Below, piece by piece: positions 3,358 to 30,038 of a stretch of DNA of 64,000 nucleotides. Location of the stretch: assembly GCF_054482595.1 (NCBI RefSeq), contig NZ_CM137008.1; one strand, given 5' to 3'. The translations under genes and the position numbers were made by a program. Within the stretch, counting starts at the first letter, position 1, and every line of letters begins with the position of its first letter. The notes below the pieces were generated by a model. The model was not told where the DNA came from. It made no database searches and was given only the letters and a program-made list of their open reading frames with translations.

Positions 3358-4779
3358 TCAGGCTTTCACATCACTCACTGCACCGACCGGAATATCAGCA
3401 TGAACAGGCTCGGGCGGTACTTTGCGATATTTATCCAGCAGATGAATCTGGATCCTGCGCAGCGTGTCGCCATTGAGGCGATAGAAACGGAAGTAGAGAA
3501 TCAGCGTTACCATGAAAAACAGAGTTGGTAGAGCAATCATAATAAACTGCATACCTAATAGGGCTTGCGTAGACTGTTCAACATTCGGTACATAGCCAAT
3601 CATCCCTAACACAACCGCAATGAAAAAAGCCGCAAAGGCTGAACCGCCCTTCACCACCATAGTCTGCACGGAGTAAGCGATACTTTCACAGCGTACGTGC
3701 AGTTTATATTCACCGTAATCAACGGTATCTGCCACCATGATGACCTGTAATACCCAGAAAAGCGCCGTTCCCACATTCAGCAAAATACCCGCAATCACAA
3801 TGAGGACGACGTTGTGATAGCTCATTAATGCCATTAACAGGAGAACACCACAGCTTAACACCGGAAGAATAGATGCTCCGGCCCATAAAATGCGTCGGGA
3901 TAATGATTTAACTAAGCGTGGGAAGAATACTAACGTCACCAGGTTAGCAGCTCCCGCATACGACAGATAATAGGGGAACAAATCCGCATCACCAATAACA
4001 TATGAGAAATAATAGATAGCAAATCCGGTAATAATGTTGCTGGCTACATTATAAGCAAGAGCCATACCCAAGAGGCATGAAAGCTGATCGTTTTTATAAA
4101 TTAGCGCAACGATGGCTTTAAGTGTCAGATGGCTTCCTTCAGCAGACGGTTGATTGTCTGACGAAAAGACTTCATGCACATTGCGCAAAGTGATGATGGT
4201 TGAAACAATAAAAAAGGCGATTAGTACCAGAGTGAACATCTGAAAGCCAAATCCCCGATCGCCACCGCCGACATAATTAACAAATGGTAGCGTCACACCT
4301 GCCGTAACAAAGCCTGCCAGACTGGCAAAAAAACGCGGATAAGGAACCAGTTGTTCGCGCTCACGTTTATCGAGCGTGATGGTTGGAACCAGCGACCAGA
4401 AGGGAATATCCATAATGGTGTAAGTCATGCCCCAGAGGATGTAGGTCACGCAAACAAAGACAATCTGAGTAGTACCTTCAAACAGATGCGCACTAAAGAG
4501 GAGAAATAAGATTACAGAGTTTGCCAACGTACCGATCAGGATCCAGGGTTTGAACTTACCCCATCGCGATCGCGTAGCATTTACAATCCATCCCATAATC
4601 GGATCGTTAATAGCATCCCAGATCCTCGCCACCAGAAACAAAGTACCGACCAAACCCACAGACAGCCCAACGACATCGGTGTAGTAATACATGAGGTACA
4701 TATACACAATGCCGATCGCAAAATCCTTCCCGAACGCTCCAAATCCATAACTGAGTTTTGTAGTCATTGAAATGCTCAT
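3358..4779 (-). CDS. melB: melibiose:Na+/H+ symporter
   Basis: Translation from the ATG at 4779 begins [20 protein letters not shown] and gives 473 aa; the track ORF starts 8 codons further upstream. Confidence 0.93.
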
Positions 4780-6519: not shown

Positions 6520-7428
6520 ATGAATACAGATACGTTTATGTGCAGCAGCGACGAAAAACAGACCCGCAGCCCGCTGTCGCTGTATTCGGAATACCAGCGG
6601 ATGGAGATTGAGTTTCGCGCACCGCATATCATGCCCACCAGCCACTGGCATGGTCAGGTCGAAGTGAATGTGCCTTTCGATGGCGATGTGGAATACCTGA
6701 TCAACAATGAAAAAGTGAATATCAATCAGGGTCATATCACGCTGTTCTGGGCCTGTACACCGCACCAACTAACAGATACCGGAACCTGTCAGAGCATGGC
6801 GATTTTTAATCTGCCGATGCATCTGTTTCTCTCCTGGCCGCTGGATAAAGACCTGATTAACCACGTCACTCACGGCATGGTGATCAAATCACTGGCCACA
6901 CAGCAACTTAGCCCGTTTGAAGTGCGCCGCTGGCAGCAGGAATTAAACAGTCCGAACGAGCAAATTCGCCAGCTCGCCATTGATGAAATTGGCCTGATGC
7001 TCAAGCGATTTAGCCTCTCTGGCTGGGAACCGATTCTGGTCAATAAAACCTCGCGCACACACAAAAACAGCGTCTCGCGCCATGCGCAATTTTATGTTAG
7101 CCAGATGCTGGGCTTTATTGCCGAAAACTATGATCAGGCGCTGACCATCAACGATGTGGCTGAGCACGTCAAACTTAACGCCAACTATGCAATGGGGATA
7201 TTCCAGCGGGTCATGCAATTGACGATGAAACAGTACATTACCGCGATGCGCATCAACCACGTTCGCGCGTTACTGAGCGATACCGATAAAAGTATTCTCG
7301 ATATTGCCCTGACGGCAGGCTTTCGTTCAAGTAGTCGTTTTTACAGCACGTTCGGCAAATATGTCGGCATGTCGCCGCAACAATACCGCAAACTTAGCCA
7401 ACAGCGCCGCCAGACGTTTCCCGGCTAA
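6520..7428 (+). CDS. melR: AraC-family melibiose operon activator
   Basis: 302 aa; C-terminal AraC-type HTH region; divergent from melAB. Confidence 0.92.
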   Translation: MNTDTFMCSSDEKQTRSPLSLYSEYQRMEIEFRAPHIMPTSHWHGQVEVNVPFDGDVEYLINNEKVNINQGHITLFWACTPHQLTDTGTCQSMAIFNLPMHLFLSWPLDKDLINHVTHGMVIKSLATQQLSPFEVRRWQQELNSPNEQIRQLAIDEIGLMLKRFSLSGWEPILVNKTSRTHKNSVSRHAQFYVSQMLGFIAENYDQALTINDVAEHVKLNANYAMGIFQRVMQLTMKQYITAMRINHVRALLSDTDKSILDIALTAGFRSSSRFYSTFGKYVGMSPQQYRKLSQQRRQTFPG

Positions 7429-7626
7429 AGACGATATCAGTATCAGCCAAAAAAATAGTTTAGCCGTCGATAATAAGCAGTGAAAATAATTTAAAATAAT
7501 CACATAACGTATTGTTTATAAAACTAAATATTTCAAAAATGTTTGTTTTTCACGCGCTTTACAGCCCGAAAAGGCCGGAAGATACTTGCCCGCAACGAAG
7601 ATTCCTTCATAACCGGGTAAGCAATG

Positions 7627-9894
7627 ATGAAAGTATTAATTGTTGAAAGCGAGTTTCTCCATCAAGACACCTGGGTCGGTAACGCCGTTGAGCGTCTGGC
7701 AGATGCTTTAAGCCAGCAAAATGTTACCGTGATTAAATCCACCTCCTTTGATGATGGTTTTGCCATTCTCTCTTCAAACGAAGCCATTGACTGCCTGATG
7801 TTCAGCTATCAAATGGAACATCCGGACGAACATCAAAACGTCAGACAATTGATCGGTAAGCTTCATGAGCGCCAACAAAACGTGCCGGTCTTCCTGTTGG
7901 GCGATCGGGAAAAAGCCCTCGCCGCAATGGACCGGGATCTGCTGGAGCTTGTCGATGAATTCGCCTGGATTCTGGAAGATACCGCCGACTTTATCGCCGG
8001 ACGCGCCGTTGCCGCGATGACCCGCTACCGCCAGCAGCTGTTGCCGCCACTGTTCAGCGCGCTGATGAAATATAGTGACATCCATGAATATTCCTGGGCA
8101 GCGCCAGGCCACCAGGGCGGCGTTGGTTTTACCAAAACACCCGCCGGACGTTTCTACCATGACTACTATGGTGAAAATCTGTTTCGCACCGACATGGGCA
8201 TCGAACGAACTTCCCTCGGTTCTTTGCTTGACCATACTGGCGCATTTGGCGAAAGCGAAAAATATGCCGCACGCGTATTTGGTGCCGATCGCTCCTGGTC
8301 GGTAGTCGTCGGTACTTCCGGCTCTAACCGCACCATCATGCAGGCTTGCATGACCGATAACGATGTCGTGGTCGTTGACCGTAATTGCCATAAATCCATC
8401 GAACAAGGCTTGATGCTGACAGGCGCGAAACCAGTCTACATGGTGCCAAGCCGCAACCGCTACGGCATTATCGGGCCAATCTATCCGCAGGAAATGCAAC
8501 CTGAAACCTTGCAGAAGAAAATCAGTGAAAGCCCGCTGACTAAAGACAAAGCTGGGCAAAAACCGTCTTACTGCGTGGTGACCAACTGCACCTATGACGG
8601 CGTGTGTTATAACGCTAAAGAAGCGCAGGATCTGCTGGAAAAAACCTCCGATCGTCTGCACTTTGACGAAGCCTGGTACGGCTATGCACGTTTCAACCCG
8701 ATCTATGCCGATCACTATGCCATGCGCGGCGAACCTGGCGATCACAACGGTCCTACCGTTTTCGCCACCCACTCCACCCACAAACTGCTGAATGCGCTGT
8801 CACAGGCTTCTTATATTCATGTACGTGAAGGTCGTGGGGCGATTAACTTCTCCCGCTTCAACCAGGCCTACATGATGCATGCCACCACCTCCCCGCTGTA
8901 TGCCATCTGCGCATCCAACGACGTGGCGGTGTCGATGATGGACGGCAACAGCGGCCTGTCACTGACACAAGAAGTGATTGACGAAGCGGTTGATTTTCGT
9001 CAGGCGATGGCGCGGCTGTATAAAGAGTTCACCGCTGACGGTAGCTGGTTCTTCAAACCGTGGAACAAAGAAGTCGTCACCGACCCACAAACCGGCAAAA
9101 CCTATGACTTTGCTGACGCACCAACCAAACTGCTGACCACCGTTCAGGACTGCTGGGTAATGCATCCGGGCGAAAGCTGGCACGGCTTCAAAGATATTCC
9201 GGATAACTGGAGTATGCTCGACCCAATTAAAGTCAGCATCCTTGCTCCGGGAATGGGTGAAGATGGTGAACTGGAAGAAACCGGTGTTCCGGCGGCGCTG
9301 GTCACTGCCTGGCTTGGTCGCCACGGCATTGTGCCTACCCGCACCACTGACTTCCAAATTATGTTCCTGTTCTCTATGGGCGTAACCCGTGGGAAATGGG
9401 GGACTCTGGTTAACACCCTTTGCTCCTTCAAACGCCACTATGACGCCAACACACCGCTGGCGCAGGTGATGCCGGAACTTGTTGAACAATATCCTGACAC
9501 TTACGCGAACATGGGGATTCACGATCTGGGTGACACCATGTTTGCCTGGCTGAAAGAAAACAACCCTGGCGCACGGTTGAACGAAGCCTATTCCGGCCTG
9601 CCGATGGCGGAAATCACCCCGCGTGAAGCGTACAACGCGATTGTCGACAACAATGTCGAACTGGTATCCATTGAAAATCTGCCAGGACGCATCGCGGCAA
9701 ACTCAGTTATCCCGTATCCGCCAGGAATCCCGATGCTGCTGTCTGGTGAAAACTTCGGCGATAAAAACAGTCCGCAAGTAAGTTATTTACGCTCGCTGCA
9801 ATCCTGGGACCACCATTTCCCTGGATTTGAACACGAAACTGAAGGGACTGAAATTATTGACGGTATTTACCACGTTATGTGCGTGAAAGCGTAA
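7627..9894 (+). CDS. adiA: biodegradative (acid-inducible) arginine decarboxylase
   Basis: 755 aa from the second ATG (MKVLIVESEF...); PLP-dependent Orn/Lys/Arg decarboxylase family. Confidence 0.93.
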   Translation: MKVLIVESEFLHQDTWVGNAVERLADALSQQNVTVIKSTSFDDGFAILSSNEAIDCLMFSYQMEHPDEHQNVRQLIGKLHERQQNVPVFLLGDREKALAAMDRDLLELVDEFAWILEDTADFIAGRAVAAMTRYRQQLLPPLFSALMKYSDIHEYSWAAPGHQGGVGFTKTPAGRFYHDYYGENLFRTDMGIERTSLGSLLDHTGAFGESEKYAARVFGADRSWSVVVGTSGSNRTIMQACMTDNDVVVVDRNCHKSIEQGLMLTGAKPVYMVPSRNRYGIIGPIYPQEMQPETLQKKISESPLTKDKAGQKPSYCVVTNCTYDGVCYNAKEAQDLLEKTSDRLHFDEAWYGYARFNPIYADHYAMRGEPGDHNGPTVFATHSTHKLLNALSQASYIHVREGRGAINFSRFNQAYMMHATTSPLYAICASNDVAVSMMDGNSGLSLTQEVIDEAVDFRQAMARLYKEFTADGSWFFKPWNKEVVTDPQTGKTYDFADAPTKLLTTVQDCWVMHPGESWHGFKDIPDNWSMLDPIKVSILAPGMGEDGELEETGVPAALVTAWLGRHGIVPTRTTDFQIMFLFSMGVTRGKWGTLVNTLCSFKRHYDANTPLAQVMPELVEQYPDTYANMGIHDLGDTMFAWLKENNPGARLNEAYSGLPMAEITPREAYNAIVDNNVELVSIENLPGRIAANSVIPYPPGIPMLLSGENFGDKNSPQVSYLRSLQSWDHHFPGFEHETEGTEIIDGIYHVMCVKA

Positions 9895-10011
9895 CCACTA
9901 TTCCGCTGAAGGCGTAATTGTTTAAATAACATTACGCCGCCTGGCCTTAGGCCTTTTGAGTATGGCAACGTTTTCATAAAAATTGCTGCAAACAAAAATG
10001 TCATACTTTTT

Positions 10012-10038
10012 GCGCGGCCCCACCCCGCGCTTTTTTTT
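10012..10038 (+). terminator. rho-independent terminator downstream of adiA
   Basis: Stem gcgcgg / ccgcgc with loop ccccacc, followed by an 8-T run. Confidence 0.8.
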
Positions 10039-10218
10039 GCCTGTTATTTATCCTGTAAAAAAATATGTACATGAAAAATTACTATAAAAATTTGTAATAT
10101 TAGTAAAACTCGTTATTTTTATGCATGTTTATATTCATCATACAATTATATAACCATTTCCCGGTATCGCTTTGCTTTAGCGAGAACTGGTCTTTTATTT
10201 GCACTCAGGAGTACATGT

Positions 10219-10980
10219 ATGAGGATTTGCAGCGACCAACCTTGTATTGTTTTATTGACTGAAAAAGATGTCTGGATAAGGGTGAATGGGAAAGAACCTA
10301 TTAGCCTTAAAGCTAACCATATGGCGTTATTAAATTGTGAAAATAATATTATCGACGTCTCCTCTCTTAACAACACTTTGGTTGCTCATATTAGTCACGA
10401 CATCATCAAAGATTACCTCCGGTTTCTGAATAAAGATCTCTCGCAAATACCAGTATGGCAACGTAGCGCTACGCCCATACTCACCCTGCCATGCCTGACG
10501 CCAGACGTCTTTCGCGTTGCCGCGCAACACAGCATGATGCCCGCAGAAACTGAGTCAGAAAAGGAACGAACACGCGCATTATTATTCACGGTGCTATCCC
10601 GTTTTCTCGACAGTAAAAAATTCCTTTCATTAATGATGTATATGTTACGTAATTGTGTAAGTGACAGCGTTTATCAAATTATTGAAAGCGATATTCACAA
10701 AGACTGGAATCTTAGTATGGTAGCCAGTTGTTTATGTCTTAGCCCAAGTCTGTTAAAGAAAAAGTTGAAAAGCGAAAACACCAGTTATAGCCAAATAATC
10801 ACCACCTGCCGCATGCGTTATGCCGTAAATGAATTAATGATGGACGGTAAAAATATCTCTCAGGTATCACAGTCCTGCGGCTACAACAGTACGTCGTACT
10901 TTATTTCTGTCTTTAAAGACTTCTACGGTATGACGCCGCTGCATTATGTTAGTCAGCACAGAGAACGCACTGTCGCCTGA
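10219..10980 (+). CDS. adiY: AraC-family regulator of the arginine-dependent acid resistance genes
   Basis: 253 aa; AraC-type C-terminal HTH; located between adiA and adiC; visibly AT-rich coding sequence. Confidence 0.9.
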   Translation: MRICSDQPCIVLLTEKDVWIRVNGKEPISLKANHMALLNCENNIIDVSSLNNTLVAHISHDIIKDYLRFLNKDLSQIPVWQRSATPILTLPCLTPDVFRVAAQHSMMPAETESEKERTRALLFTVLSRFLDSKKFLSLMMYMLRNCVSDSVYQIIESDIHKDWNLSMVASCLCLSPSLLKKKLKSENTSYSQIITTCRMRYAVNELMMDGKNISQVSQSCGYNSTSYFISVFKDFYGMTPLHYVSQHRERTVA

Positions 10981-11116
10981 TTTTTAACCTTAACGAAGAG
11001 CTATATTAATAACGGCATCAGCGATAACCCGGTCGATAATAATTCAACTATCGAATGCAGGCGTATGATATGACGTAATTTATTGTCACGAAGCTCGCCT
11101 TCGCAGGAGTTTAATT

Positions 11117-12454
11117 ATGTCTTCGGATGCTGATGCTCACAAAGTGGGCTTAATCCCCGTCACCCTGATGGTGTCGGGGAATATTATGGGGTCAGGTGTT
11201 TTTCTGTTACCTGCAAACCTGGCCTCCACCGGCGGGATTGCCATTTATGGATGGTTGGTGACGATTATCGGTGCGCTGGGGCTCTCGATGGTATACGCCA
11301 AAATGTCGTTCCTCGACCCAAGTCCTGGTGGTTCTTACGCTTACGCCCGCCGCTGCTTTGGCCCGTTTCTCGGTTATCAAACCAACGTCCTCTACTGGCT
11401 GGCCTGCTGGATCGGCAATATCGCCATGGTGGTCATTGGCGTAGGATATTTAAGTTACTTCTTCCCGATTCTGAAAGATCCATTGGTATTAACCATCACC
11501 TGCGTCGTGGTGCTGTGGATCTTCGTCCTGCTGAACATTGTCGGTCCGAAAATGATCACCCGTGTGCAGGCCGTTGCCACCGTGCTGGCGCTGATCCCCA
11601 TCGTCGGGATTGCCGTATTTGGCTGGTTCTGGTTCCGTGGTGAAACCTATATGGCGGCATGGAACGTCAGCGGCCTGGGCACTTTCGGTGCAATTCAAAG
11701 TACCCTTAACGTTACGCTGTGGTCGTTCATCGGTGTGGAAAGTGCCTCCGTTGCCGCAGGTGTGGTGAAAAACCCGAAACGCAATGTCCCTATCGCCACC
11801 ATCGGTGGGGTATTGATTGCCGCCGTTTGCTATGTGCTCTCCACCACCGCGATTATGGGGATGATCCCTAATGCCGCACTGCGCGTTTCTGCCTCGCCAT
11901 TCGGTGATGCCGCACGGATGGCGTTGGGTGACACCGCCGGGGCCATTGTTTCCTTCTGCGCAGCTGCGGGTTGCTTAGGTTCACTGGGCGGCTGGACATT
12001 GCTGGCGGGTCAAACGGCGAAAGCCGCTGCCGATGACGGACTGTTCCCACCGATTTTTGCCCGTGTAAATAAAGCGGGTACGCCAGTGGCGGGGCTGATT
12101 ATCGTCGGTATTTTGATGACCATCTTCCAGCTCAGCAGCATTTCACCAAACGCGACCAAAGAATTCGGTCTGGTTTCTTCCGTCTCGGTCATCTTTACAC
12201 TGGTGCCATATCTTTACACCTGTGCGGCATTACTGCTGCTCGGACACGGTCACTTTGGTAAAGCACGCCCGGCATATCTGGCAGTTACTACCATTGCCTT
12301 CCTCTACTGCATCTGGGCCGTGGTGGGGTCCGGGGCGAAAGAGGTTATGTGGTCATTTGTCACCCTGATGGTCATCACCGCCATGTATGCGCTGAATTAC
12401 AACCGGCTGCATAAAAACCCGTATCCCTTAGATGCACCAATAAGCAAAGATTAA
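11117..12454 (+). CDS. adiC: arginine:agmatine antiporter
   Basis: 445 aa, APC-family 12-TM transporter; gene order adiA-adiY-adiC. Confidence 0.93.
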
Positions 12455-12480
12455 TTCCCCTTAATCCAGCAAAGATAAAA

Positions 12481-12519
12481 GCCAACCTTAAGAACTTAAG
12501 GTTGGCTTAATTTTGCTTT
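12481..12519 (+). terminator. rho-independent terminator downstream of adiC
   Basis: Perfect inverted repeat gccaaccttaag / cttaaggttggc followed by ttaattttgcttt. Confidence 0.75.
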
Positions 12520-12557
12520 GCGAGCATATGCGCACTTTGTTCGATGGAAACACCGTG

Positions 12558-14201
12558 ATGTTGAAGTGCCTACTAAAAAGACCCTCTTTGAATTTACTCG
12601 CCTGGCTATTGTTAGCCGCTTTTTATATCTCTATCTGCCTGAATATTGCCTTTTTTAAACAGGTGTTGCAGGCGCTGCCGCTGGACTCGCTGCATAACGT
12701 ACTGGTTTTCTTGTCGATGCCGGTCGTCGCCTTCAGCGTGATTAATATTGTCCTGACACTAAGCTCTTTCTTATGGCTTAATCGACCGCTGGCCTGCCTG
12801 TTTATTCTGGTTGGCGCGGCTGCACAATATTTCATAATGACTTACGGCATCGTCATCGACCGCTCGATGATTGCCAATATTATTGATACCACTCCGGCAG
12901 AAAGCTATGCGCTGATGACACCGCAAATGTTATTAACGCTGGGATTCAGCGGCGTGCTTGCTGCGCTGATTGCCTGCTGGATTAAAATCAAACCTGCCAC
13001 CTCGCGTCTGCGCAGTGTTCTTTTCCGTGGAGCCAATATTCTGGTTTCTGTACTGCTGATTTTGCTGGTCGCCGCACTATTTTATAAAGACTACGCCTCG
13101 TTGTTCCGCAACAACAAAGAGCTGGTGAAGTCCTTAAGCCCCTCTAACAGCATTGTTGCCAGCTGGTCATGGTACTCCCATCAGCGACTGGCAAATCTGC
13201 CGCTGGTGCGAATTGGTGAAGACGCGCACCGCAACCCGTTAATGCAGAACGAAAAACGTAAAAATTTGACCATCCTGATTGTCGGCGAAACCTCGCGGGC
13301 GGAGAACTTCTCCCTCAACGGCTACCCGCGTGAAACTAACCCGCGGTTGGCGAAAGATAACGTGGTCTATTTCCCTAATACCGCATCTTGCGGCACGGCA
13401 ACGGCAGTTTCAGTACCGTGCATGTTCTCGGATATGCCGCGTGAGCATTACAAAGAAGAGCTGGCACAGCACCAGGAAGGCGTGCTGGATATCATTCAGC
13501 GAGCGGGCATCAACGTGCTGTGGAATGACAACGATGGTGGCTGTAAAGGTGCCTGCGACCGCGTGCCTCACCAGAACGTCACCGCGCTGAATCTGCCTGG
13601 TCAGTGCATCAACGGCGAATGCTATGACGAAGTGCTGTTCCACGGGCTGGAAGAGTACATCAATAACCTGCAGGGTGATGGCGTGATTGTCTTACACACC
13701 ATCGGCAGCCACGGTCCGACCTATTACAACCGCTATCCGCCGCAGTTCAGGAAATTTACCCCAACCTGCGACACCAATGAGATCCAGACCTGTACCAAAG
13801 AGCAACTGGTGAACACTTACGACAACACGCTGGTTTACGTCGACTATATTGTTGATAAAGCGATTAATCTGCTGAAAGAACATCAGGATAAATTTACCAC
13901 CAGCCTGGTTTATCTTTCTGACCACGGTGAATCGTTAGGTGAAAATGGCATCTATCTGCACGGTCTGCCTTATGCCATCGCCCCGGATAGCCAAAAACAG
14001 GTGCCGATGCTGCTGTGGCTGTCGGAGGATTATCAAAAACGGTATCAGGTTGACCAGAACTGCCTGCAAAAACAGGCGCAAACGCAACACTATTCACAAG
14101 ACAATTTATTCTCCACGCTATTGGGATTAACTGGCGTTGAGACGAAGTATTACCAGGCTGCGGATGATATTCTGCAAACTTGCAGGAGAGTGAGTGAATG
14201 A
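12558..14201 (+). CDS. eptA: lipid A phosphoethanolamine transferase
   Basis: 547 aa from internal ATG ([18 protein letters not shown]...); N-terminal TM segments plus sulfatase-like domain; overlaps basR start. Confidence 0.9.
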
Positions 14202-17912: not shown

Positions 17913-18791
17913 TTACACCAAATTTACAGAGAAGATTTCCTCGAGCATTGCCCCCGCCAGACGCTGCGCTGAACAGAGTCGTGGCATCCCCAGCGCGACA
18001 GTTTGCCAGCGTTGGGTCACTGACCAGCAAACGGGTTGTTTATCTGCCGTGGTCCACTTTCCCAGCCAACTTAAAAAATCAGCATGATCCCCGCCCGTCG
18101 GAACGGTCGAAGAGGCAAACCACTGATGGTAATAGTGACGCGTGGTCGGGGCCGCATTGATACTCTCTGCCAGATGTTGTGTCGCTTTCACGCGCAAATC
18201 ACCCAGCAACAACGCCACCGCTTGCGGGCTTCCCAGACGACAGGCATCGCCAAATGCCCCCCAACGCAACTCTTCGAGAACGATAAAACAGCGCCCAGGC
18301 AACGACCAGGCGTTATACGCCCCAGCACGCCAGCGGGTAAAAATTTGCTCGCTCTGTTCACCCGCCTGCACCAGTAGGCCTCGTTGCGTTAACGCCTTTT
18401 CCTTCCAGCGACAACGGGCTGAAAACCACTCATACAAGGCGGCAATTTGCTGGGGGAGCTCCGGGAAAGCAGAGTGCTGGCGGTGATCCATTTTTTGCAG
18501 CAGCGCCAGATGCTGCGCGATCTGCGTCAGTGCCAGATGACCGGGATCCAGCATCGACGCCAGTTTTTCCACCAATGTCAAACGCAGGCTAAGCGGCGCA
18601 TTTAACATTCCGCCGTTCGTCCATGTCTGAAGCTGCACGCGCGCAAGAAGTTCCTGCATCAGTCGTTCACGAAACTGCTGCTGATGGGCTTGTGGAAGGC
18701 GGGCATCATCGCCCTGCGCCAGATCCACTAAAAAGCGGGGATAAACCGACTCCAGCACGCGACCGGGGCCGTCAAGTAACGTCTTGGTCAA
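17913..18791 (-). CDS. yjcZ: uncharacterised protein YjcZ
   Basis: 292 aa; position downstream of crfC as in K-12; 4-bp overlap with crfC stop. Confidence 0.8.
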   Translation of the reverse strand: MTKTLLDGPGRVLESVYPRFLVDLAQGDDARLPQAHQQQFRERLMQELLARVQLQTWTNGGMLNAPLSLRLTLVEKLASMLDPGHLALTQIAQHLALLQKMDHRQHSAFPELPQQIAALYEWFSARCRWKEKALTQRGLLVQAGEQSEQIFTRWRAGAYNAWSLPGRCFIVLEELRWGAFGDACRLGSPQAVALLLGDLRVKATQHLAESINAAPTTRHYYHQWFASSTVPTGGDHADFLSWLGKWTTADKQPVCWSVTQRWQTVALGMPRLCSAQRLAGAMLEEIFSVNLV

Positions 18792-21016
18792 TATCGTTCT
18801 GCCGTGAAAAGTGTTTGAATATCATCGCGTAACAGCTGGGCGTCGGTGTAAATCCAGCCGTGAGTCATCACAGTCTGCTGCAATTGCTGCTGCATCAGCC
18901 TGACCACCGATTCATTTTGTTGACGCAGAGCCAGACTTTCGCGTAAACGCGTCTGTAATTCCGTCAAACATGAAGCGAACTCAGCGAAAAAAGTATTCAT
19001 GCCTGCCGTAACAGATTCATCGACCTGCTCTGCCAGAACTTTAGCCATTTGTTGGCAATAGAGATCGACTTCTGCACTTAATGCTCGTTGCAACACACTG
19101 TAATCAACCGTTTCTGTCGGGGATTTCTCATTCCCCCGTCCCCAGTCGGGCTGATTCAACCAGCGCGAAAAAGTCTCACGCACAACGCCTAAACGCGTGC
19201 TCTGCTCGTCCGTTGCTTCCTGGCGCGAAATGACTTCACTGAACAGCTGGCGAGTGTTGAAGTGGGGAACTACGCCGTGAAAAACAGGAAAATGAAACCC
19301 AGGACGAAACCCTGACTCGCTCAATTCCATTTTGACTTGTTGTTCAATGGGGCGAATAACATCGGTTAACACCCGGCAAAGAGTGGATTCAAGCTCGGCA
19401 AAACGCAGCGTAAAGTCGCGACTGATGGTGTTCTGCGCCGTCTGTAACAGTGTCTCACAGCGGGTACGAATCTCGCTTAACGGCTCCGAATCATCCTGAA
19501 ACAAGGCGGCTAACTGCGCCTTCAGCGCATCTTGCTGTTGACGCAGAAAGTGGTTGGCGGAGGTCAGGGCCAGCTCGATTTCATGTTTAATCTCGCCGCT
19601 CACCTGCGCCTGATTGAGTTGCAATAGCTGCAAACTTTCTTCGATCTGGTGGATATTTTGCCGCAATTGTTCACAAGCGACGTTTAACCCGTGCGCACGA
19701 AAATCCAGGTATTCCCGCGCCTGCTGCGCGTAATTCAACAGTTTATGCGCGGCAGATCGCAGAGCATACAACGAGGCGTTAGCGTAAGCGGCATGAAGCA
19801 ACATCTGAATTGGCTGGGCGAACAGCGAATCTTCCCACAGCTGATCGGCAGCATGACGAATATGTTCGAGGTCCGCCAGATCGGCATGACGCCAGCGCCT
19901 GCCGAGCGCGGCATGGGCAAAATCTTCTACCCAGCGTTGTTGCTCTGGCGCTGGTAACTTACCGTTGTTGGCTAACTCATGGCGCGCCCGATTCGCCAGG
20001 TAGCCCCACATCGACGACACCGGAAATATCTGCTGTGGCGTAATACAGCCTTTCATCAGCGTCCCGGAAATCAGTGCCCGCACCTGGTCGGCGTCGTCAC
20101 TGTTACGATCCTGTTGATCGAACTTATTGACCAGCACATACAGCGGCACCGATTGCCCCACCGCCAAAATCGCCTCACGGACCTCTTCATCGGAGATCGA
20201 TTTCAGTTGCGTATAATCCAGCACCGCCAGTACCGCCGAGGCGCGTGCCAGCTGCTGGTTAAGCATTTTTTGCAGATGCGGTTGCCCGGCTTCATTTGGC
20301 CCGGGGGTATCCAGTAACGTCAACTGACCGGGATAACTCTCCAGCCCCGCCAGATGGACAAACTCCACTTCAATCACGGGAATATGCTCAATGGCGGCGT
20401 AAGCAGAAAAAGGAAAATCGACGTCCAGCGCCTTCGCCAGTCGCACCAAATCATTCAAACTTTTCAGACAATGAAAAATAGGCTGGGCACCCAGATAATA
20501 TTTTTCGAAAGCGACGCCATTTTCGATCCGCTGCATAAGCGCACGCATATCTTTATCTATTTCCAGCACATCGGTCAGATGCTTAATATCGCAATCACGC
20601 AGGCGTTGTTGTAATTGTTGAATTAAACAATCGATTGGCGCGACATGTGAAAAATGCAGTACCGGTTCTTTTTGCCCGGGTGTATGGCGAATAAGCGTCG
20701 GCAGGGCAGTCATTGGGCGATTGCGATTAGGCAGAACCTCCGTACCAACAATGGCATTAATGGTGGTTGATTTCCCTGCTTTCATAGTACCGACAATCGC
20801 CAGCACCATTTCCAGTTGGGAAATTTTACGCAACTCATTATTCAGCATCGCGTGACGCTCGGCGATATTAGGCTGACTCCAGGGTAAAGCCAGTTGTGGC
20901 GCATCGTCTCCGGGTACAGAGAGAGGCATTTTTTCCAGTAACTGCAACTGTTGGCGAGAAAGCTGTAACAGGCGTTCAGCCTCCTGACTTAACTCATACA
21001 GGGTCTGTGTGTACAT
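18788..21016 (-). CDS. crfC: dynamin-like GTPase CrfC (YjdA)
   Basis: 742 aa; P-loop GTPase motif GTMKAGKST near N-terminus; long coiled-coil C-terminal part. Confidence 0.85.
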   Translation of the reverse strand: MYTQTLYELSQEAERLLQLSRQQLQLLEKMPLSVPGDDAPQLALPWSQPNIAERHAMLNNELRKISQLEMVLAIVGTMKAGKSTTINAIVGTEVLPNRNRPMTALPTLIRHTPGQKEPVLHFSHVAPIDCLIQQLQQRLRDCDIKHLTDVLEIDKDMRALMQRIENGVAFEKYYLGAQPIFHCLKSLNDLVRLAKALDVDFPFSAYAAIEHIPVIEVEFVHLAGLESYPGQLTLLDTPGPNEAGQPHLQKMLNQQLARASAVLAVLDYTQLKSISDEEVREAILAVGQSVPLYVLVNKFDQQDRNSDDADQVRALISGTLMKGCITPQQIFPVSSMWGYLANRARHELANNGKLPAPEQQRWVEDFAHAALGRRWRHADLADLEHIRHAADQLWEDSLFAQPIQMLLHAAYANASLYALRSAAHKLLNYAQQAREYLDFRAHGLNVACEQLRQNIHQIEESLQLLQLNQAQVSGEIKHEIELALTSANHFLRQQQDALKAQLAALFQDDSEPLSEIRTRCETLLQTAQNTISRDFTLRFAELESTLCRVLTDVIRPIEQQVKMELSESGFRPGFHFPVFHGVVPHFNTRQLFSEVISRQEATDEQSTRLGVVRETFSRWLNQPDWGRGNEKSPTETVDYSVLQRALSAEVDLYCQQMAKVLAEQVDESVTAGMNTFFAEFASCLTELQTRLRESLALRQQNESVVRLMQQQLQQTVMTHGWIYTDAQLLRDDIQTLFTAERY

Positions 21017-21417
21017 AGAAAATTCTTCCTTAAAGCAAATTTTATTACTTTTATTTAGCCAGATTGTTTTTGAGTTCTGTTTTCGGCTTTTATAATTACT
21101 GCAAGAAATAATTTTATATTTAGAGCGTTGTTTTTTATTAGAATAAATAACATCTTCCGATACGTTTAAAACGTCAGAAAGATAAAAATATCATGTGAAT
21201 TAAAAAAAGAACAAGTAGAGCATTAACCTTATCTTAAATAATAAATGGAGGCAAAAAGATTATTTTCTTTTTGCGTTTCCTTTCAAATGAAAACGATCGT
21301 CGTCTAAAATCAGCAGTACCCCCGACAAACTCAGGGATTTTGTGTATAATTGCGGCCTTTTTCGGCAATCTGCCGTTTTTTGGCGCTTTTGCCCTGCTGA
21401 CTTTTGAGGAAATCCAC

Positions 21418-21753
21418 ATGTCATTACCACACTGCCCAAAATGCAACTCCGAATACACTTACGAAGATAACGGCATGTACATCTGCCCGGAATGTGCCTA
21501 CGAATGGAACGACGCAGAACCTGCACAGGAAAGCGACGAGCTGATCGTTAAAGATGCTAACGGCAATCTGCTGGCTGACGGCGACAGCGTTACCATCATT
21601 AAAGATCTGAAGGTGAAAGGTAGCTCTTCGATGCTGAAAATTGGCACCAAAGTGAAAAACATCCGCCTGGTTGAAGGCGACCATAACATCGATTGCAAAA
21701 TCGACGGTTTTGGTCCGATGAAACTGAAATCTGAGTTTGTGAAAAAGAACTGA
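21418..21753 (+). CDS. phnA: zinc-ribbon protein PhnA (YjdM)
   Basis: 111 aa from ATG at 21418 ([30 protein letters not shown]...); CxxC...CxxC zinc ribbon; the track ORF is extended upstream. Confidence 0.88.
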
Positions 21754-22886: not shown

Positions 22887-23675
22887 ATGCAAACGATTAT
22901 CCGCGTCGAGAAGCTCGCCAAAACCTTCAATCAGCATCAGGCGCTGCATGCGGTTGATCTGAACATTCATCACGGTGAAATGGTGGCTCTGCTTGGGCCG
23001 TCGGGTTCCGGCAAATCCACCCTTTTACGTCACTTAAGCGGCCTGATTGTCGGCGATAAAAAGCCAGAATGCCGCGTCGAACTGCTGGGCCGTACCGTCC
23101 AGCAAAATGGCCGTCTGGCCCGCGATATCCGCAAAAGCCGCGCCCATACCGGCTACATCTTCCAACAATTCAACCTGGTGAACCGCCTGAGCGTACTGGA
23201 GAACGTGCTGATTGGCGCGCTCGGCAGCACGCCGTTCTGGCGCACCTGTTTTAGTTGGTTCACCCGCGAGCAGAAACAGCGCGCGTTACAGGCGCTGACC
23301 CGCGTTGGCATGGTGCATTTTGCCCATCAGCGCGTTTCCACCCTCTCCGGCGGCCAGCAGCAGCGTGTAGCGATTGCCCGCGCGCTGATGCAGCAGGCGA
23401 AGGTGATTCTCGCCGACGAACCGATCGCCTCGCTGGACCCGGAATCGGCGCGCATCGTGATGGACACCCTGCGCGACATCAACCAGAACGACGGCATCAC
23501 CGTGGTCGTCACGCTGCATCAGGTGGATTACGCCCTGCGCTACTGCGAGCGCATCGTCGCCCTGCGTCAGGGGCACGTCTTCTACGACGGCAGCAGCCAA
23601 TTGTTTGATAACGATCGTTTTGACCATCTCTACCGCAGCATTAACCGCGTCGAAGAGAACGCGAAAGCTGCCTGA
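22887..23675 (+). CDS. phnC: phosphonate ABC transporter ATP-binding protein
   Basis: 262 aa; Walker [13 protein letters not shown] signature LSGGQQQR. Confidence 0.93.
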
Positions 23676-23699
23676 CATCCCCATCATTGAGGAAAACGA

Positions 23700-24716
23700 A
23701 TGAACGCTAAGATAATTGCCTCGCTGGCCTTCACCAGCATGTTCAGCCTCAGCACCCTGTTTAGCCCGGCGCACGCCGAAGAGCAGGAAAAGGCGCTGAA
23801 TTTCGGCATTATTTCAACGGAATCACAGCAAAACCTGAAACCGCAATGGACGCCGTTTTTACAGGATATGGAGAAGAAGCTGGGCGTGAAGGTCAACGCC
23901 TTCTTTGCCCCGGACTACGCGGGCATTATCCAGGGAATGCGCTTCAACAAAGTGGATATCGCCTGGTACGGCAACCTGTCGGCAATGGAAGCGGTGGATC
24001 GCGCCAACGGCCAGGTCTTCGCCCAGACGGTCGCGGCGGATGGATCGCCGGGTTACTGGAGCGTGTTGATCGTCAACAAAGACAGTCCGATCAACAACCT
24101 GAGCGATCTGCTGGCGAAGCGGAAAGATCTCACCTTCGGCAATGGCGATCCTAACTCCACCTCTGGCTTCCTCGTCCCCGGTTACTACGTCTTTGCCAAA
24201 AACAATATCTCCGCTAACGACTTTAAGCGCACCGTCAACGCCGGGCATGAAACCAACGCGCTGGCCGTCGCCAACAAGCAGGTGGATGTGGCGACCAACA
24301 ACACCGAAAACCTCGACAAACTGAAAACCTCCGCGCCGGAGAAGCTCAAAGAGCTGAAGGTGATCTGGAAGTCGCCGCTAATCCCAGGCGATCCGATCGT
24401 CTGGCGCAAGAATCTGTCCGAAACCACCAAAGACAAGATCTACGACTTCTTTATGAATTACGGCAAGACGCCGGAAGAGAAAGCGGTGCTGGAACGCCTG
24501 GGCTGGGCGCCGTTCCGCGCCTCCAGCGACCTGCAACTGGTGCCGATTCGCCAGCTCGCGCTGTTTAAAGAGATGCAGGGCGTGAAAAGCAATAAAGGAC
24601 TGAATGAGCAGGACAAGCTGGCAAAAACCACCGAGATTCAGGCGCAGCTGGATGACCTGGACCGCCTGAACAACGCGTTAAGCGCGATGAGTTCGGTGAG
24701 TAAAGCGGTGCAGTAA
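23700..24716 (+). CDS. phnD: phosphonate ABC transporter periplasmic binding protein
   Basis: 338 aa with N-terminal signal peptide. Confidence 0.93.
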   Translation: MNAKIIASLAFTSMFSLSTLFSPAHAEEQEKALNFGIISTESQQNLKPQWTPFLQDMEKKLGVKVNAFFAPDYAGIIQGMRFNKVDIAWYGNLSAMEAVDRANGQVFAQTVAADGSPGYWSVLIVNKDSPINNLSDLLAKRKDLTFGNGDPNSTSGFLVPGYYVFAKNNISANDFKRTVNAGHETNALAVANKQVDVATNNTENLDKLKTSAPEKLKELKVIWKSPLIPGDPIVWRKNLSETTKDKIYDFFMNYGKTPEEKAVLERLGWAPFRASSDLQLVPIRQLALFKEMQGVKSNKGLNEQDKLAKTTEIQAQLDDLDRLNNALSAMSSVSKAVQ

Positions 24717-24720
24717 ATCG

Positions 24721-24808
24721 TAGGTCGGATAAGACGCCCCGGCGTCGCATCCGACAATGTGCAGGCGTTGATGCCGGATGCGGTGCAAGCACCTTATCCG
24801 GCCTACAG
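24721..24808. repeat. REP element pair between phnD and phnE
   Basis: ggtcggataagacgccccggcgtcgcatccgaca ... gatgccggatgcggtg...ccttatccggcctaca. Confidence 0.8.
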
Positions 24809-24821
24809 ACCGGAGCCAAAC

Positions 24822-25601
24822 ATGCAAACCATCACCATCGCCCCACCCAAGCGCAGCTGGTTCTCGCTTCTGAGCTGGGCCGTTGTACTCGCCGTGTTGG
24901 TCGTCTCGTGGCAGGGCGCGGAAATGGCCCCGCTTACGCTGATCAAAGACGGCGGCAACATGGCAACCTTCGCCGCCGACTTCTTCCCGCCCGATTTCAG
25001 CCAGTGGCAGGATTACCTCACCGAAATGGCCGTCACGCTGCAAATCGCCGTCTGGGGCACCGCGCTGGCGGTGGTTCTCTCCATCCCCTTTGGCCTGATG
25101 AGCGCCGAAAACCTGGTGCCGTGGTGGGTTTACCAGCCCGTTCGCCGCCTGATGGACGCCTGCCGCGCCATTAACGAAATGGTCTTCGCCATGCTGTTCG
25201 TGGTCGCCGTCGGCCTCGGCCCGTTCGCTGGCGTGCTGGCGCTGTTTATCCACACCACCGGCGTGCTCTCCAAGCTGCTTTCCGAAGCGGTGGAAGCGAT
25301 TGAACCCGGCCCGGTGGAAGGCATTCGCGCGACCGGCGCTAACAAGCTCGAAGAGATCCTCTACGGCGTGCTGCCGCAGGTGATGCCGCTGCTGATCTCC
25401 TACTCCCTCTATCGCTTCGAATCCAACGTCCGCTCGGCGACCGTCGTCGGCATGGTCGGCGCGGGCGGGATCGGCGTCACGCTGTGGGAAGCGATTCGCG
25501 GTTTCCAGTTCCAGCAAACCTGCGCCCTGATGGTGCTCATCATCGTCACGGTCAGCCTGCTGGATTTCCTCTCTCAACGGTTGCGTAAGCACTTTATCTG
25601 A
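24822..25601 (+). CDS. phnE: phosphonate ABC transporter permease (intact reading frame)
   Basis: 259 aa from ATG at 24822 ([19 protein letters not shown]...), uninterrupted to the stop; the track ORF starts upstream inside the REP element. Confidence 0.88.
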
Positions 25602-25621
25602 TTAGCGAGGCATTGATAGCT

Positions 25622-26347
25622 ATGCACTTGTCTACACATCCGACCAGCTACCCAACACGCTATCAGGAGATAGCCGCAAAACTTGAGCAGGAGCTTCGTC
25701 AACACTACCGCTGCGGCGACTATCTTCCCGCCGAGCAGCAACTGGCGGCGCGCTTTGCGGTGAACCGCCACACCCTGCGTCGCGCCATCGACCAACTGGT
25801 GGAAAAAGGCTGGGTACAGCGCCGTCAGGGCGTCGGCGTGCTGGTGCTGATGCGCCCGTTCGATTACCCGCTCAACGCCCAGGCGCGTTTTAGCCAGAAT
25901 CTGCTGGATCAGGGCAGCCATCCCACCAGCGAAAAACTGCTGTCGGTGCTGCGCCCGGCCTCCGGTCACGTCGCTGACGCGCTGGGGATCAAGGAGGGCG
26001 AGAACGTTATCCACCTGCGCACCCTGCGCCGGGTCAACGGCATCGCGCTCTGTTTGATCGACCACTACTTCGCGGACCTCACCCTCTGGCCGACGCTGCA
26101 ACGCTTCGACAGCGGCTCGCTGCACGATTTTCTGCGCGAGCAAACGGGGATTGCACTGCGCCGCAGCCAGACGCGGATCAGCGCCCGCCGCGCCCAGGCC
26201 AAAGAGAGCCAGCGTCTTGAAATCCCGAATATGTCGCCGCTGCTGTGCGTGCGCACCCTTAACCACCGTGACGGTGAAAGCAGCCCGGCGGAGTACTCCG
26301 TCAGCCTGACGCGCGCCGACATGATTGAATTCACTATGGAGCACTGA
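25622..26347 (+). CDS. phnF: GntR-family regulator of the phn operon
   Basis: 241 aa from ATG at 25622 (MHLSTHPTSYPTRYQEIAAKLEQ...); N-terminal GntR-type HTH. Confidence 0.9.
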   Translation: MHLSTHPTSYPTRYQEIAAKLEQELRQHYRCGDYLPAEQQLAARFAVNRHTLRRAIDQLVEKGWVQRRQGVGVLVLMRPFDYPLNAQARFSQNLLDQGSHPTSEKLLSVLRPASGHVADALGIKEGENVIHLRTLRRVNGIALCLIDHYFADLTLWPTLQRFDSGSLHDFLREQTGIALRRSQTRISARRAQAKESQRLEIPNMSPLLCVRTLNHRDGESSPAEYSVSLTRADMIEFTMEH

Positions 26348-26800
26348 ATGCACGCAGATACCGCGACCCGCCAGCACTGGATGTCCGTACTGGCGCACAG
26401 CCAACCGGCAGAACTGGCAGCACGCCTGAACGCGCTGAACATCACCGCCGACTATGAGGTGATCCGCGCCGCTGAAACTGGCCTGGTACAGATTCAGGCG
26501 CGGATGGGCGGCACCGGCGAACGCTTTTTTGCCGGCGACGCCACGCTCACCCGCGCCGCCGTACGCCTGACTGACGGCACGCTCGGCTACAGCTGGGTGC
26601 TGGGGCGCGACAAACAGCACACCGAACGCTGCGCGCTGATTGACGCGCTGATGCAGCAAACCCGCCACTTTCAAAACTTATTAGAAACTCTTATTGCCCC
26701 GCTGGACGCTGACCGTATGGCACGCATTGCCGCACGCCAGGCCGAAGTGAACGCCAGCCGGGTCGACTTCTTTACGATGGTTCGCGGAGACAACGCATGA
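26348..26800 (+). CDS. phnG: C-P lyase core complex subunit PhnG
   Basis: 150 aa; operon position. Confidence 0.9.
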
Positions 26801-27381
26801 CCCTGGAAACCGCTTTTATGCTTCCCGTGCAGGATGCCCAGCACAGTTTTCGTCGCCTGTTAAAGGCCATGAGCGAGCCGGGCGTGATTGTCGCCCTGCA
26901 TCAGCTCAAACGCGGCTGGCAGCCGCTGAATATCGCCACCACCAGCGTGCTGCTGACGCTGGCCGATAACGACACGCCGGTGTGGCTTGCCGCGCCATTG
27001 AGCAACGATATCGTCAGCCAGAGCCTGCGTTTTCATACCAACGCGCCGCTGGTCAGCCAGCCGGAACAGGCGACCTTCGCGGTAACGGATGAGGCGATTT
27101 CCAGCGAACAGCTTAACGCCCTTTCCACCGGCACCGCCGTTGCGCCGGAAGCGGGCGCAACGCTGATTTTACAGGTCGCCAGCCTGAGCGGCGGGCGCAT
27201 GCTGCGTCTCACCGGCGCGGGTATTGCCGAAGAACGAATGATCGCCCCGCAGCTGCCGGAGTGCATTCTGCACGAACTCACCGAGCGCCCGCACCCGTTC
27301 CCGCTCGGCATCGACCTGATCCTGACCTGCGGCGAGCGCCTGCTGGCTGTTCCGCGAACCACTCATGTGGAGGTGTGCTGA
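26797..27381 (+). CDS. phnH: C-P lyase core complex subunit PhnH
   Basis: 194 aa; 4-bp overlap with phnG. Confidence 0.9.
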
Positions 27382-28445
27382 TGTACGTTGCCGTGAAAGG
27401 GGGCGAGAAGGCGATCGACGCCGCCCACGCCCTGCAAGAGAGCCGACGCCGGGGCGATACCGATTTGCCTGAACTGAGCGTCGCCCAGATTGAACAGCAG
27501 CTTAACCTCGCAGTAGATCGCGTGATGACCGAAGGCGGCATTGCCGACCGCGAACTGGCGGCGCTGGCGCTGAAACAGGCCAGCGGCGATAACGTCGAAG
27601 CAATTTTCCTGCTGCGCGCCTACCGCACCACGCTGGCGAAGCTCGCGGTAAGCGAGCCGCTCGACACCACGGAGATGCGCCTCGAACGGCGTATTTCGGC
27701 GGTTTATAAAGACATTCCCGGCGGCCAGCTGCTTGGCCCAACCTACGACTACACCCATCGCCTGCTCGATTTCACCCTGCTGGCAAACGGCGAAGCGCCG
27801 ACGCTGACCACCGCCGACAGCGAACAACAGCCGTCGCCGCACGTTTTCAGCCTGCTGGCGCGTCAGGGGCTGGCGAAGTTTGAAGAGGATAGCGGCGCAC
27901 AGCCGGATGACATCACCCGCACGCCACCGGTTTACCCCTGCTCACGTTCTTCCCGCCTGCAACAGCTCATGCGCGGCGACGAAGGCTATTTGCTGGCGCT
28001 GGCCTACTCCACCCAACGCGGTTACGGGCGCAATCACCCGTTCGCGGGTGAAATCCGCAGTGGTTACATCGACGTGTCGATTGTGCCGGAAGAGCTGGGA
28101 TTTGCGGTGAACGTCGGCGAACTGCTGATGACTGAGTGTGAAATGGTCAACGGTTTTATCGACCCACCGGATGAATCTCCGCACTTCACGCGCGGCTACG
28201 GGCTGGTGTTCGGCATGAGCGAGCGCAAAGCGATGGCGATGGCGCTGGTCGACCGCGCTCTGCAAGCCCCGGAGTACGGCGAGCACGCGACAGGCCCGGC
28301 GCAGGATGAAGAGTTCGTGCTGGCACATGCCGACAACGTCGAAGCCGCAGGCTTTGTCTCGCACCTCAAACTCCCGCACTACGTCGATTTCCAGGCCGAA
28401 CTGGAGCTACTCAAACGTCTGCAACAGGAGCAGAACCATGGCTAA
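27381..28445 (+). CDS. phnI: C-P lyase core complex subunit PhnI
   Basis: 354 aa from ATG at 27381 preceded by ggagg; the track ORF is extended upstream. Confidence 0.9.
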   Translation: MYVAVKGGEKAIDAAHALQESRRRGDTDLPELSVAQIEQQLNLAVDRVMTEGGIADRELAALALKQASGDNVEAIFLLRAYRTTLAKLAVSEPLDTTEMRLERRISAVYKDIPGGQLLGPTYDYTHRLLDFTLLANGEAPTLTTADSEQQPSPHVFSLLARQGLAKFEEDSGAQPDDITRTPPVYPCSRSSRLQQLMRGDEGYLLALAYSTQRGYGRNHPFAGEIRSGYIDVSIVPEELGFAVNVGELLMTECEMVNGFIDPPDESPHFTRGYGLVFGMSERKAMAMALVDRALQAPEYGEHATGPAQDEEFVLAHADNVEAAGFVSHLKLPHYVDFQAELELLKRLQQEQNHG

Positions 28446-29283
28446 TCTGAGCGGCTACAACTTTGCCTACCTCGACGAGCAGACCAAACGCATGATCCGC
28501 CGCGCCATCTTAAAAGCGGTGGCAATCCCCGGTTATCAGGTGCCGTTTGGCGGGCGCGAGATGCCAATGCCGTACGGCTGGGGAACCGGCGGCATACAGC
28601 TCACCGCCAGCGTGATTGGCGAAAGCGACGTGTTGAAGGTGATTGACCAGGGCGCGGATGACACCACCAACGCCGTGTCGATCCGCAACTTCTTTAAGCG
28701 CGTGACCGGGGTGAATACCACCGAACGCACGGATGATGCGACGGTTATCCAGACGCGTCACCGCATCCCCGAAACGCCGCTGACCGAAGATCAGATAATT
28801 ATCTTCCAGGTGCCGATCCCCGAACCGCTGCGCTTTATCGAGCCGCGCGAAACGGAAACCCGCACCATGCACGCGCTGGAGGAGTACGGCGTGATGCAGG
28901 TGAAGCTGTATGAAGATATCGCCCGCTTCGGTCATATCGCCACCACCTACGCCTATCCGGTGAAGGTAAACGGGCGCTACGTAATGGACCCGTCGCCGAT
29001 CCCGAAATTTGATAACCCGAAAATGGACATGATGCCCGCCCTGCAACTGTTCGGCGCAGGGCGCGAAAAGCGCATCTATGCGGTGCCGCCGTTTACCCGC
29101 GTGGAAAGTCTCGATTTCGACGATCACCCGTTCACCGTTCAGCAGTGGGATGAGCCATGCGCCATCTGCGGAACGACCCACAGCTATCTTGATGAAGTGG
29201 TGCTGGATGACGCCGGAAACCGCATGTTTGTCTGCTCCGATACCGATTATTGCCGCCAACAGAGCGAGGCAAAAAGCCAATGA
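28438..29283 (+). CDS. phnJ: C-P lyase catalytic subunit PhnJ
   Basis: 281 aa from ATG at 28438 (MANLSGYNFAYLDEQTKRMIRR...); C-terminal cysteine cluster (CAICGTTHSYLDE...FVCSDTDYC). Confidence 0.9.
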   Translation: MANLSGYNFAYLDEQTKRMIRRAILKAVAIPGYQVPFGGREMPMPYGWGTGGIQLTASVIGESDVLKVIDQGADDTTNAVSIRNFFKRVTGVNTTERTDDATVIQTRHRIPETPLTEDQIIIFQVPIPEPLRFIEPRETETRTMHALEEYGVMQVKLYEDIARFGHIATTYAYPVKVNGRYVMDPSPIPKFDNPKMDMMPALQLFGAGREKRIYAVPPFTRVESLDFDDHPFTVQQWDEPCAICGTTHSYLDEVVLDDAGNRMFVCSDTDYCRQQSEAKSQ

Positions 29284-30038
29284 ATCAACCGTTACTTTCG
29301 GTCAATAACCTGACCCACCTTTACGCGCCGGGCAAAGGTTTTAGCGATGTCTCTTTTGATTTATGGCCGGGAGAAGTGCTGGGCATTGTCGGGGAATCCG
29401 GCTCCGGGAAGACCACGCTGCTGAAATCAATCTCCGCGCGTCTGACGCCGCAACTGGGGGAGATTCACTATGAAAACCGTTCCCTCTATGGCATGAGCGA
29501 GGCCGACCGCCGTCGCCTGCTGCGCACCGAATGGGGCGTAGTGCATCAGCATCCGCTCGACGGCCTGCGCCGCCAGGTGTCGGCAGGCGGCAATATCGGC
29601 GAGCGGCTGATGGCAACCGGGGCGCGTCATTACGGCGACATTCGCGCTACCGCGCAGAAGTGGCTGGAAGAGGTGGAAATTCCCGCCAACCGGATCGACG
29701 ACCTGCCGACCACCTTTTCCGGCGGTATGCAGCAGCGTTTGCAGATTGCCCGCAACCTGGTGACGCATCCGAAGCTGGTGTTTATGGACGAGCCAACCGG
29801 TGGGCTGGATGTGTCGGTGCAGGCGCGCCTGCTCGATCTGCTGCGCGGCCTGGTGGTGGAGCTGAACCTGGCGGTGGTGATTGTCACCCACGATTTAGGC
29901 GTCGCCCGCCTGCTGGCGGACCGTTTGCTGGTGATGAAGCAGGGGCAAGTGGTGGAGAGTGGGTTAACCGACCGCGTGCTCGACGACCCGCATCATCCGT
30001 ATACACAGCTGCTGGTGTCATCGGTTTTGCAGAATTGA
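29280..30038 (+). CDS. phnK: C-P lyase system ABC-type ATPase PhnK
   Basis: 252 aa from ATG at 29280 ([15 protein letters not shown]...); Walker [10 protein letters not shown]. Confidence 0.9.

Follow-up and report, generated by a model that had tools for sequence, protein, structure and literature searches.

The 1.2 kb that separate the adiA stop codon from the adiC start codon (9895-11116) are compositionally distinct from the surrounding E. coli chromosome, with ~39% GC as opposed to 54% for the window, the term used here for the whole 64-kb stretch of DNA analysed. Taken together, the evidence makes it highly probable that this segment is an inserted regulatory module whose AT-richness has been maintained, which is occupied by H-NS in K-12, and within which the regulator AdiY is kept low. 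The silencing of adiY by H-NS is already known, having been published in 2010 and 2022, and our results mainly confirm adiY as a textbook-style example of a core regulatory gene of foreign appearance that is under H-NS control. The comparative analysis adds that the base-compositional deficit of adiY is an old and stable property of the locus and not the fading trace of a transfer, and its constancy bears on the question of why some long-resident genes remain AT-rich and H-NS-bound.

RefSeq annotation and NCBIfam agree on the order of genes, which is melR (6520-7428), adiA (7627-9894), adiY (10219-10980), adiC (11117-12454), and eptA (12558-14201). The adiY gene, on the + strand, encodes an AraC/XylS regulator of 253 aa (WP_001217059.1, "DNA-binding transcriptional activator AdiY"). 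Its best NCBIfam matches were the GadX, YdeO, HilD, and HilC models, all scoring under the equivalog cut-offs, and AdiY is therefore a relative of those regulators and not one of them. A C-terminal AraC-type helix-turn-helix and full-length similarity to members place it in the GadX/EnvY-like branch of the AraC/XylS regulators. Over 9600-11300 the sequence matches several complete E. coli genomes with 100% identity.

Taking the window's 53 annotated genes of 300 nt or more as the local reference for gene composition, we found adiY to have the lowest GC content of all (41.3%; mean 55.3%, sd 4.6, z = -3.06), well outside the normal range of its neighbours. The original prediction that adiY is much more AT-rich than the genes on either side was thus borne out, with GC contents of 52.5% for adiA and 54.3% for adiC. 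Spacer and gene together (9895-10980, 39.5% GC) make up the 1.1 kb with the highest AT content anywhere in the 64 kb; of all 1086-bp windows, only 0.5% have so little GC, every one of them overlapping the adi locus, and the somewhat broader patch at 9742-11203 has a GC content of 40.4%. Relative to the 53 genes, the first and third codon positions of adiY deviate strongly (GC1 z = -3.1, GC3 z = -2.5) and the second position less so (GC2 z = -1.1). Codon bias was measured by Nc, by GC3 relative to the amino-acid expectation, and by the rare-codon fraction. GC3 in adiY is 0.457 compared with 0.635 expected from its amino acids under window codon usage (z = -2.5), a shortfall of 0.18 where other genes average +0.007 ± 0.074; Nc is 61, which amounts to no codon bias (window 43.8 ± 6.1), and the rare-codon fraction is twice the window mean. 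The combined G+A+R+P content of AdiY is also the lowest found (14.6%; window mean 26.5%, sd 3.6). Since both GC1 and GC3 deviate, the bias of adiY has two sources, namely amino-acid content and synonymous choice.

Elsewhere in the window, the sole other comparable AT trough lies at ~20.3-21.8 kb and takes in the 5' portion of crfC/rdcA together with the spacer between crfC and yjdM (~20300-21420); this spacer has 31.7% GC, falling to 20.8% in its lowest 120 bp (21089-21208). A published H-NS-bound region (MG1655 4327229-4327672, corresponding to window positions ~20479-20922) falls in the same trough, and the published list of H-NS-bound genes includes crfC (PMC8894471). The crfC gene is intact here (18788-21016) and is annotated as frameshifted, one base shorter, in strain XH990, which is identical to the window over 9600-11300. 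The gene melB (3358-4779), unlike its neighbour melA, ranks second from the bottom of the window in GC3 (0.485, or 0.166 less than its amino acids predict), while the phn operon (22887-33700) represents the opposite extreme, with genes of up to 58-63% GC and GC3 reaching 0.84 in phnE.

The adiA-adiY spacer measures exactly the 324 bp initially proposed (9895-10218), and the sequence quoted as an example of its AT-richness is located at 10066-10157. With a GC content of 35.2%, it ranks fifth lowest among the 26 intergenic regions of the window and is therefore not exceptional as a whole. It consists, however, of two unlike halves, and the claim that the spacer is conspicuously AT-rich holds for one of them: the upstream region of adiY, presumably promoter and 5' UTR (10041-10218, + strand), has a GC content of 27.5%, whereas the first 146 bp (9895-10040), which contain the adiA 3' UTR, have 44.5% and are not AT-rich. 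The AT-richest 120 bp of the entire 64 kb (10034-10153, 18.3% GC) fall almost wholly within the former.

The adiA 3' UTR (9895-10038, + strand, 144 bp) immediately follows the stop codon of adiA and is closed by an intrinsic terminator (10012-10038, + strand), which was recovered by a terminator scan and comprises a GCGCGG/CCGCGC stem (10012-10030) followed by T8. In an alignment of spacers from seven species of Escherichia, Citrobacter, and Salmonella, a near-invariant block of the form TGTCATAC-TTTTTGCGCGG...CCGCGC-T7/8 was found, within which the terminator is invariant, as is the TTTTT that precedes it, the remainder of the spacer being variable. RNA folding of the 3' UTR gave a z-score of -2.9. 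AdiZ is an sRNA cut by RNase E from the adiA 3' UTR of Salmonella, as published in December 2025, with homologues reported in Escherichia-Shigella (PMC12746102). By position directly after adiA and by its conserved terminator with a preceding U-rich stretch, the first half of the spacer is the homologue of AdiZ, the homologous part extending from ~9954 to 10038, and the adiA terminator would then double as the Hfq-binding module of that sRNA. RNase E processing, Hfq binding, and expression of AdiZ have been shown only for Salmonella (PMC12746102), and an Rfam 15 scan of 7000-13000 (E <= 1) returned no match in the adiA-adiC region, the AdiZ homologue included. The likeness to Salmonella AdiZ thus lies in the adiA 3' UTR position and in the terminator and U-rich module, near-invariant from E. 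coli to Salmonella; the two differ in that the E. coli 3' UTR has an extra 5' hairpin and is without the SgrS-like seed (PMC12746102). This extra hairpin of the Escherichia 3' UTR is located at 9911-9938 (GGCGTAAT...ATTACGCC). At the same site, C. amalonaticus and C. sedlakii also have a hairpin, in which the sequence differs but the changes compensate one another, and C. youngae and Salmonella have none that corresponds to it.

Occupancy and derepression by H-NS were looked up in published data for E. coli K-12, a strain different from that of the window. MG1655 and the window are colinear over 9600-11300, with nine SNPs and no indels, and positions were converted as 4348148 minus the MG1655 coordinate. 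The prediction of H-NS-type silencing agrees with several lines of this published work. In a competitive gel shift, H-NS preferentially binds the adiY promoter fragment, and adiY mRNA is 5-fold up in an hns mutant by qRT-PCR (Krin et al. 2010, PMC2984483). In a Δhns strain, adiY has a log2FC of +3.70 (~13-fold, P = 1.5e-23; Forrest et al. 2022, PMC8894471) and adiC mRNA one of +2.19, while adiA, at 0.17, is not derepressed under the published conditions (PMC8894471). All three genes are on the list of H-NS-bound genes (PMC8894471). Two bound regions, derived in that study from earlier ChIP-seq (PMC8894471 Supplementary Data 3), map to the locus: the first (9742-10022; MG1655 4338126-4338406) spans the final 153 bp of adiA plus 128 bp at the start of the spacer, and the second (10290-11203; MG1655 4336945-4337858) begins at codon 24 of adiY, takes in the rest of the gene and the whole adiY-adiC spacer, and ends 87 bp inside adiC. 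The adi locus therefore combines high AT content with in vivo occupancy and derepression on hns deletion, the last two being taken from published K-12 data. The called regions skip 10023-10289, a gap of 267 bp with 32.6% GC that contains the AT-richest part and the presumed adiY promoter and that may be an effect of the peak-calling threshold. The high-affinity H-NS motif TCGATAAATT, allowing up to two mismatches, had 67 matches in the window (49 ± 7 expected), and within 9851-11251 there were five two-mismatch matches and none better. For silencing of adiY by H-NS in Salmonella, nothing relevant was found in the literature.

Derepression extends to transcription start sites (TSSs) across the patch. 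According to the Cappable-seq source data of PMC8894471, 13 TSSs lie in the H-NS-bound regions, all of them up in Δhns and all beginning at a purine. Four are sense TSSs within adiY (10545, 10651, 10935, and 10958, + strand; Δhns log2FC 6.5, 6.9, 3.4, and 4.5) and three are antisense within the gene (10338, 10426, and 10634, - strand; log2FC 5.4, 7.3, and 3.5). The adiY-adiC spacer (10981-11116, + strand, 38.2% GC) contains the adiC promoter, whose two TSSs at 11075 and 11077 (+ strand; MG1655 4337073 and 4337071) rise with log2FC of 7.4 and 4.3 and are preceded, by 6 and 8 nt, by the -10 element TATGAT (11064-11069, + strand). The remaining four are on the - strand, at 9880, 11028, 11058, and 11175, the middle two being antisense TSSs within the same spacer. 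No TSS was found in the adiY upstream region (10041-10218) in the TSS data examined. A sigma-70 consensus scan of 9700-11300 gave five sites compared with 4.4 ± 2.1 in shuffles, hence no excess beyond composition; two of these five independently predicted sites are located 5 and 8 nt upstream of TSSs raised in Δhns, as in the case of TTAAGA-16-TATTAT (ending at 10343), which lies 5 nt upstream of the antisense TSS at 10338.

The further suggestion that silencing accords with acid-induced, anaerobic expression of the system connects only loosely with what has been published. The PadiY fragment, which contains 10041-10218, is weak, near-constitutive, and barely pH-responsive, and it is neither bound by AdiY nor autoregulated; AdiY binds PadiC and is itself the pH sensor, via histidine protonation, so that acid sensing resides in the protein (PMC12826058). 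As for why adiY is induced anaerobically, the literature offers no explanation so far (PMC12746102).

For the evolutionary history of the segment, 80 adiA loci were fetched from one-genome-per-species collections, and AdiY and AdiC were located in each. The order adiA-adiY-adiC is syntenic in 30 species of Enterobacteriaceae and Hafnia, distributed among Escherichia, Citrobacter, Salmonella, Kluyvera, Yokenella, Kosakonia, an Enterobacter sp., two other Enterobacteriaceae, and Hafnia. Over these loci, identity to the E. coli proteins ranges from 98% to 49% for AdiY, from 100% to 91% for AdiC, and from 100% to 80% for AdiA. Across the 30 species, adiY differs from its flanks by -11.9 ± 1.2 GC points and -16 ± 2.8 GC3 points, irrespective of divergence, and its GC3 tracks that of the flanks (r = 0.82, the significance of which is overstated, as the species are not independent). 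Within Escherichia, the dN/dS of adiY is ~0.03, which means that the gene is under purifying selection, and its dN is two to four times that of its neighbours; beyond Escherichia synonymous sites are saturated and NG86 fails, leaving dN alone comparable. AdiY has been described as found only in Enterobacteriaceae (Brameyer et al. 2022, PMC8989999). In Hafnia an adiY-like gene of 49-51% identity and 37-38% GC occupies the syntenic position, with adiA and adiC on either side (loci L026, 2712-3470, and L027, 8600-9358), where the published survey, at a cut-off of E < 1e-100, reported Hafnia to be without AdiY (PMC8989999). The adiA-adiY spacer carries additional genes in some genera: in Yokenella (L020, 8266-10447), and also at the loci L021, L048, and L076, it contains a GadE homologue, hdeD, and hdeA, and in Kosakonia (L024, 5213-6736) a GadE homologue and hdeA but no hdeD. 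The GadE homologue in such spacers is 45% identical to E. coli GadE, and the extra genes represent a piece of the "acid fitness island" inside the adi locus, with 39-43% GC.

In the Xenorhabdus species recovered (~20), adiA and adiC are separated by a gap of 20-70 bp with no adiY, and in Variovorax and a deltaproteobacterial MAG an antiporter lies directly downstream of adiA. What these lineages lack is thus exactly the AT-rich 1.2 kb. An old insertion of an adiY module between adiA and adiC would be the more parsimonious reading of these comparisons, the direction (insertion in Enterobacteriaceae as opposed to loss in Xenorhabdus) resting on few outgroups. The distinct evolutionary origin proposed for adiY may accordingly be retained in the form of an old insertion, in keeping with the absence of the gene from Xenorhabdus and with the AT-rich AraC branch to which it belongs, and abandoned in the form of a recent transfer.

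The alternative that fares best, although we consider it improbable, is that the AT-richness of adiY is a passive by-product of the amino-acid content of its AraC subfamily together with absent codon selection, H-NS binding being incidental and without a selected role. Much of the composition is compatible with this: the most deviant codon position of adiY is the first, AdiY has the lowest G+A+R+P content, its Nc indicates no translational selection, AT-richness is common to all adiY paralogues, and promoter-like sites are no more numerous than in composition-matched shuffles. Amino-acid content nevertheless leaves the GC3 shortfall of 0.18 unaccounted for, non-coding DNA on either side of the gene is AT-rich too, and the GC offset has been held throughout the history of the locus. 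Furthermore, loss of H-NS shifts adiY 13-fold and the adiC TSSs 20- to 170-fold, from which it follows that H-NS binding has regulatory consequences.

Far less credible is recent horizontal transfer, in which adiY would be newly acquired in E. coli and its AT-richness not yet ameliorated. The strong deviation of the gene from its neighbours, its absent codon bias, and the fact that close relatives adjoin prophage or island DNA (envY by DLP12, gadX/gadW in the acid fitness island) are all what would be expected of an import. The distribution of adiY is, however, not patchy: 5417 of the 5426 complete E. coli genomes contain the adi region, and the gene sits at this position in 30 species as distant as Hafnia; synonymous sites are saturated beyond Escherichia, and the GC offset is no smaller in the more divergent species. 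There is no annotated integrase, transposase, or tRNA from melR to eptA, and adiY has been flagged "horizontally acquired: no" (PMC8894471 Supplementary Data 2). Recent acquisition is rejected on the grounds of its near-universal presence in E. coli, this synteny, and this flag. That the patch is a biologically meaningless chance fluctuation of base composition can be dismissed as practically nil, for although the spacer alone is only the fifth lowest of its kind, adiY lies 3 sd under the mean of 53 genes as the extreme of the window, and the recurrence of the same GC deficit in 30 species already refutes it.

We therefore favour the explanation in which 9895-11116 is a compositionally distinct regulatory module set between the adiA stop and the adiC start. 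Its parts would be the adiA 3' UTR, carrying an AdiZ-type sRNA and the terminator and not AT-rich; the very AT-rich adiY upstream region; the AT-rich and codon-unbiased adiY itself; and the adiC promoter spacer. The module would have been inserted between originally adjacent adiA and adiC genes in an ancestor of the Enterobacteriaceae and Hafniaceae, and the steady GC deficit of ~12 points since then would represent a maintained equilibrium and not an unameliorated recent import. The published K-12 data show H-NS occupying the patch from the 3' end of adiA to the 5' end of adiC, holding adiY mRNA ~13-fold down, repressing the adiC promoter, and suppressing spurious sense and antisense promoters within adiY. 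The probable consequence is that AdiY is kept at a low basal level, and the acid response of adiA and adiC would then arise from pH-dependent activation of the AdiY protein and not from the adiY promoter. Selection for H-NS binding, local mutation bias, and weak codon selection could each underlie the stable GC deficit of adiY, and the data do not separate these causes. A stronger version, which we put forward tentatively and regard as doubtful, is that the coding AT-richness of adiY is itself selected as a cis-acting platform for H-NS, the gene body and not the promoter alone nucleating the filament. If true, the filament would set a low and noisy basal level of AdiY and also gate the downstream adiC promoter, and a platform of this kind would explain why the deficit of ~12 points (16 at third positions) has been constant in 30 species despite synonymous saturation.

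AT-richness is a trait that adiY has in common with the GadX/GadW/YdeO/AppY/EnvY branch, the E. coli paralogues having GC contents of 41.8% (gadW), 41.0% (gadX), 39.5% (ydeO), 31.7% (appY), and 46.3% (envY). By BLASTP, AdiY is 57% identical to EnvY over the full length, 38% to GadW, 37% to AppY, 35% to YdeO, and 33% to GadX. EnvY, also of 253 aa, is thus the closest E. coli paralogue of AdiY, differing from it in genomic context (envY adjoins ompT and the DLP12 prophage) and in its less extreme composition (GC3 0.59). The envY gene is located at NC_000913.3 586147-586908 (L086, 8148-8909), and its product nests within the syntenic adiY clade, beside the Kluyvera/Yokenella/Kosakonia group (NJ bootstrap 95.5%), by virtue of which envY has the look of an adiY-type gene copied from that lineage.

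The most similar known arrangement is that of gadX/gadW in the acid fitness island. These regulators are of the same AraC/XylS branch (33-38% identical to AdiY) and have a gene GC of ~41%; as with adiY, they stand next to decarboxylase and transporter genes of normal GC (gadA and mdtF, neighbours of the gadX/gadW-type paralogues, have 53-54%), control acid resistance based on an amino-acid decarboxylase, and were shown by one and the same study to be direct targets of H-NS (PMC2984483). They differ in being inside a 15-kb island, where adiY stands alone between adiA and adiC, and adiY is far more widely conserved (Enterobacteriaceae and Hafnia) and not flagged as horizontally acquired. The locus likewise resembles cases in which H-NS suppresses spurious intragenic promoters (Singh et al. 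2014, PMC3923964; Forrest et al. 2022, PMC8894471), in that H-NS lies across an AT-rich gene body and intragenic TSSs in both orientations emerge or become stronger in Δhns. What sets it apart from xenogeneic silencing by H-NS is that adiY is a long-resident core gene and not recently acquired DNA.
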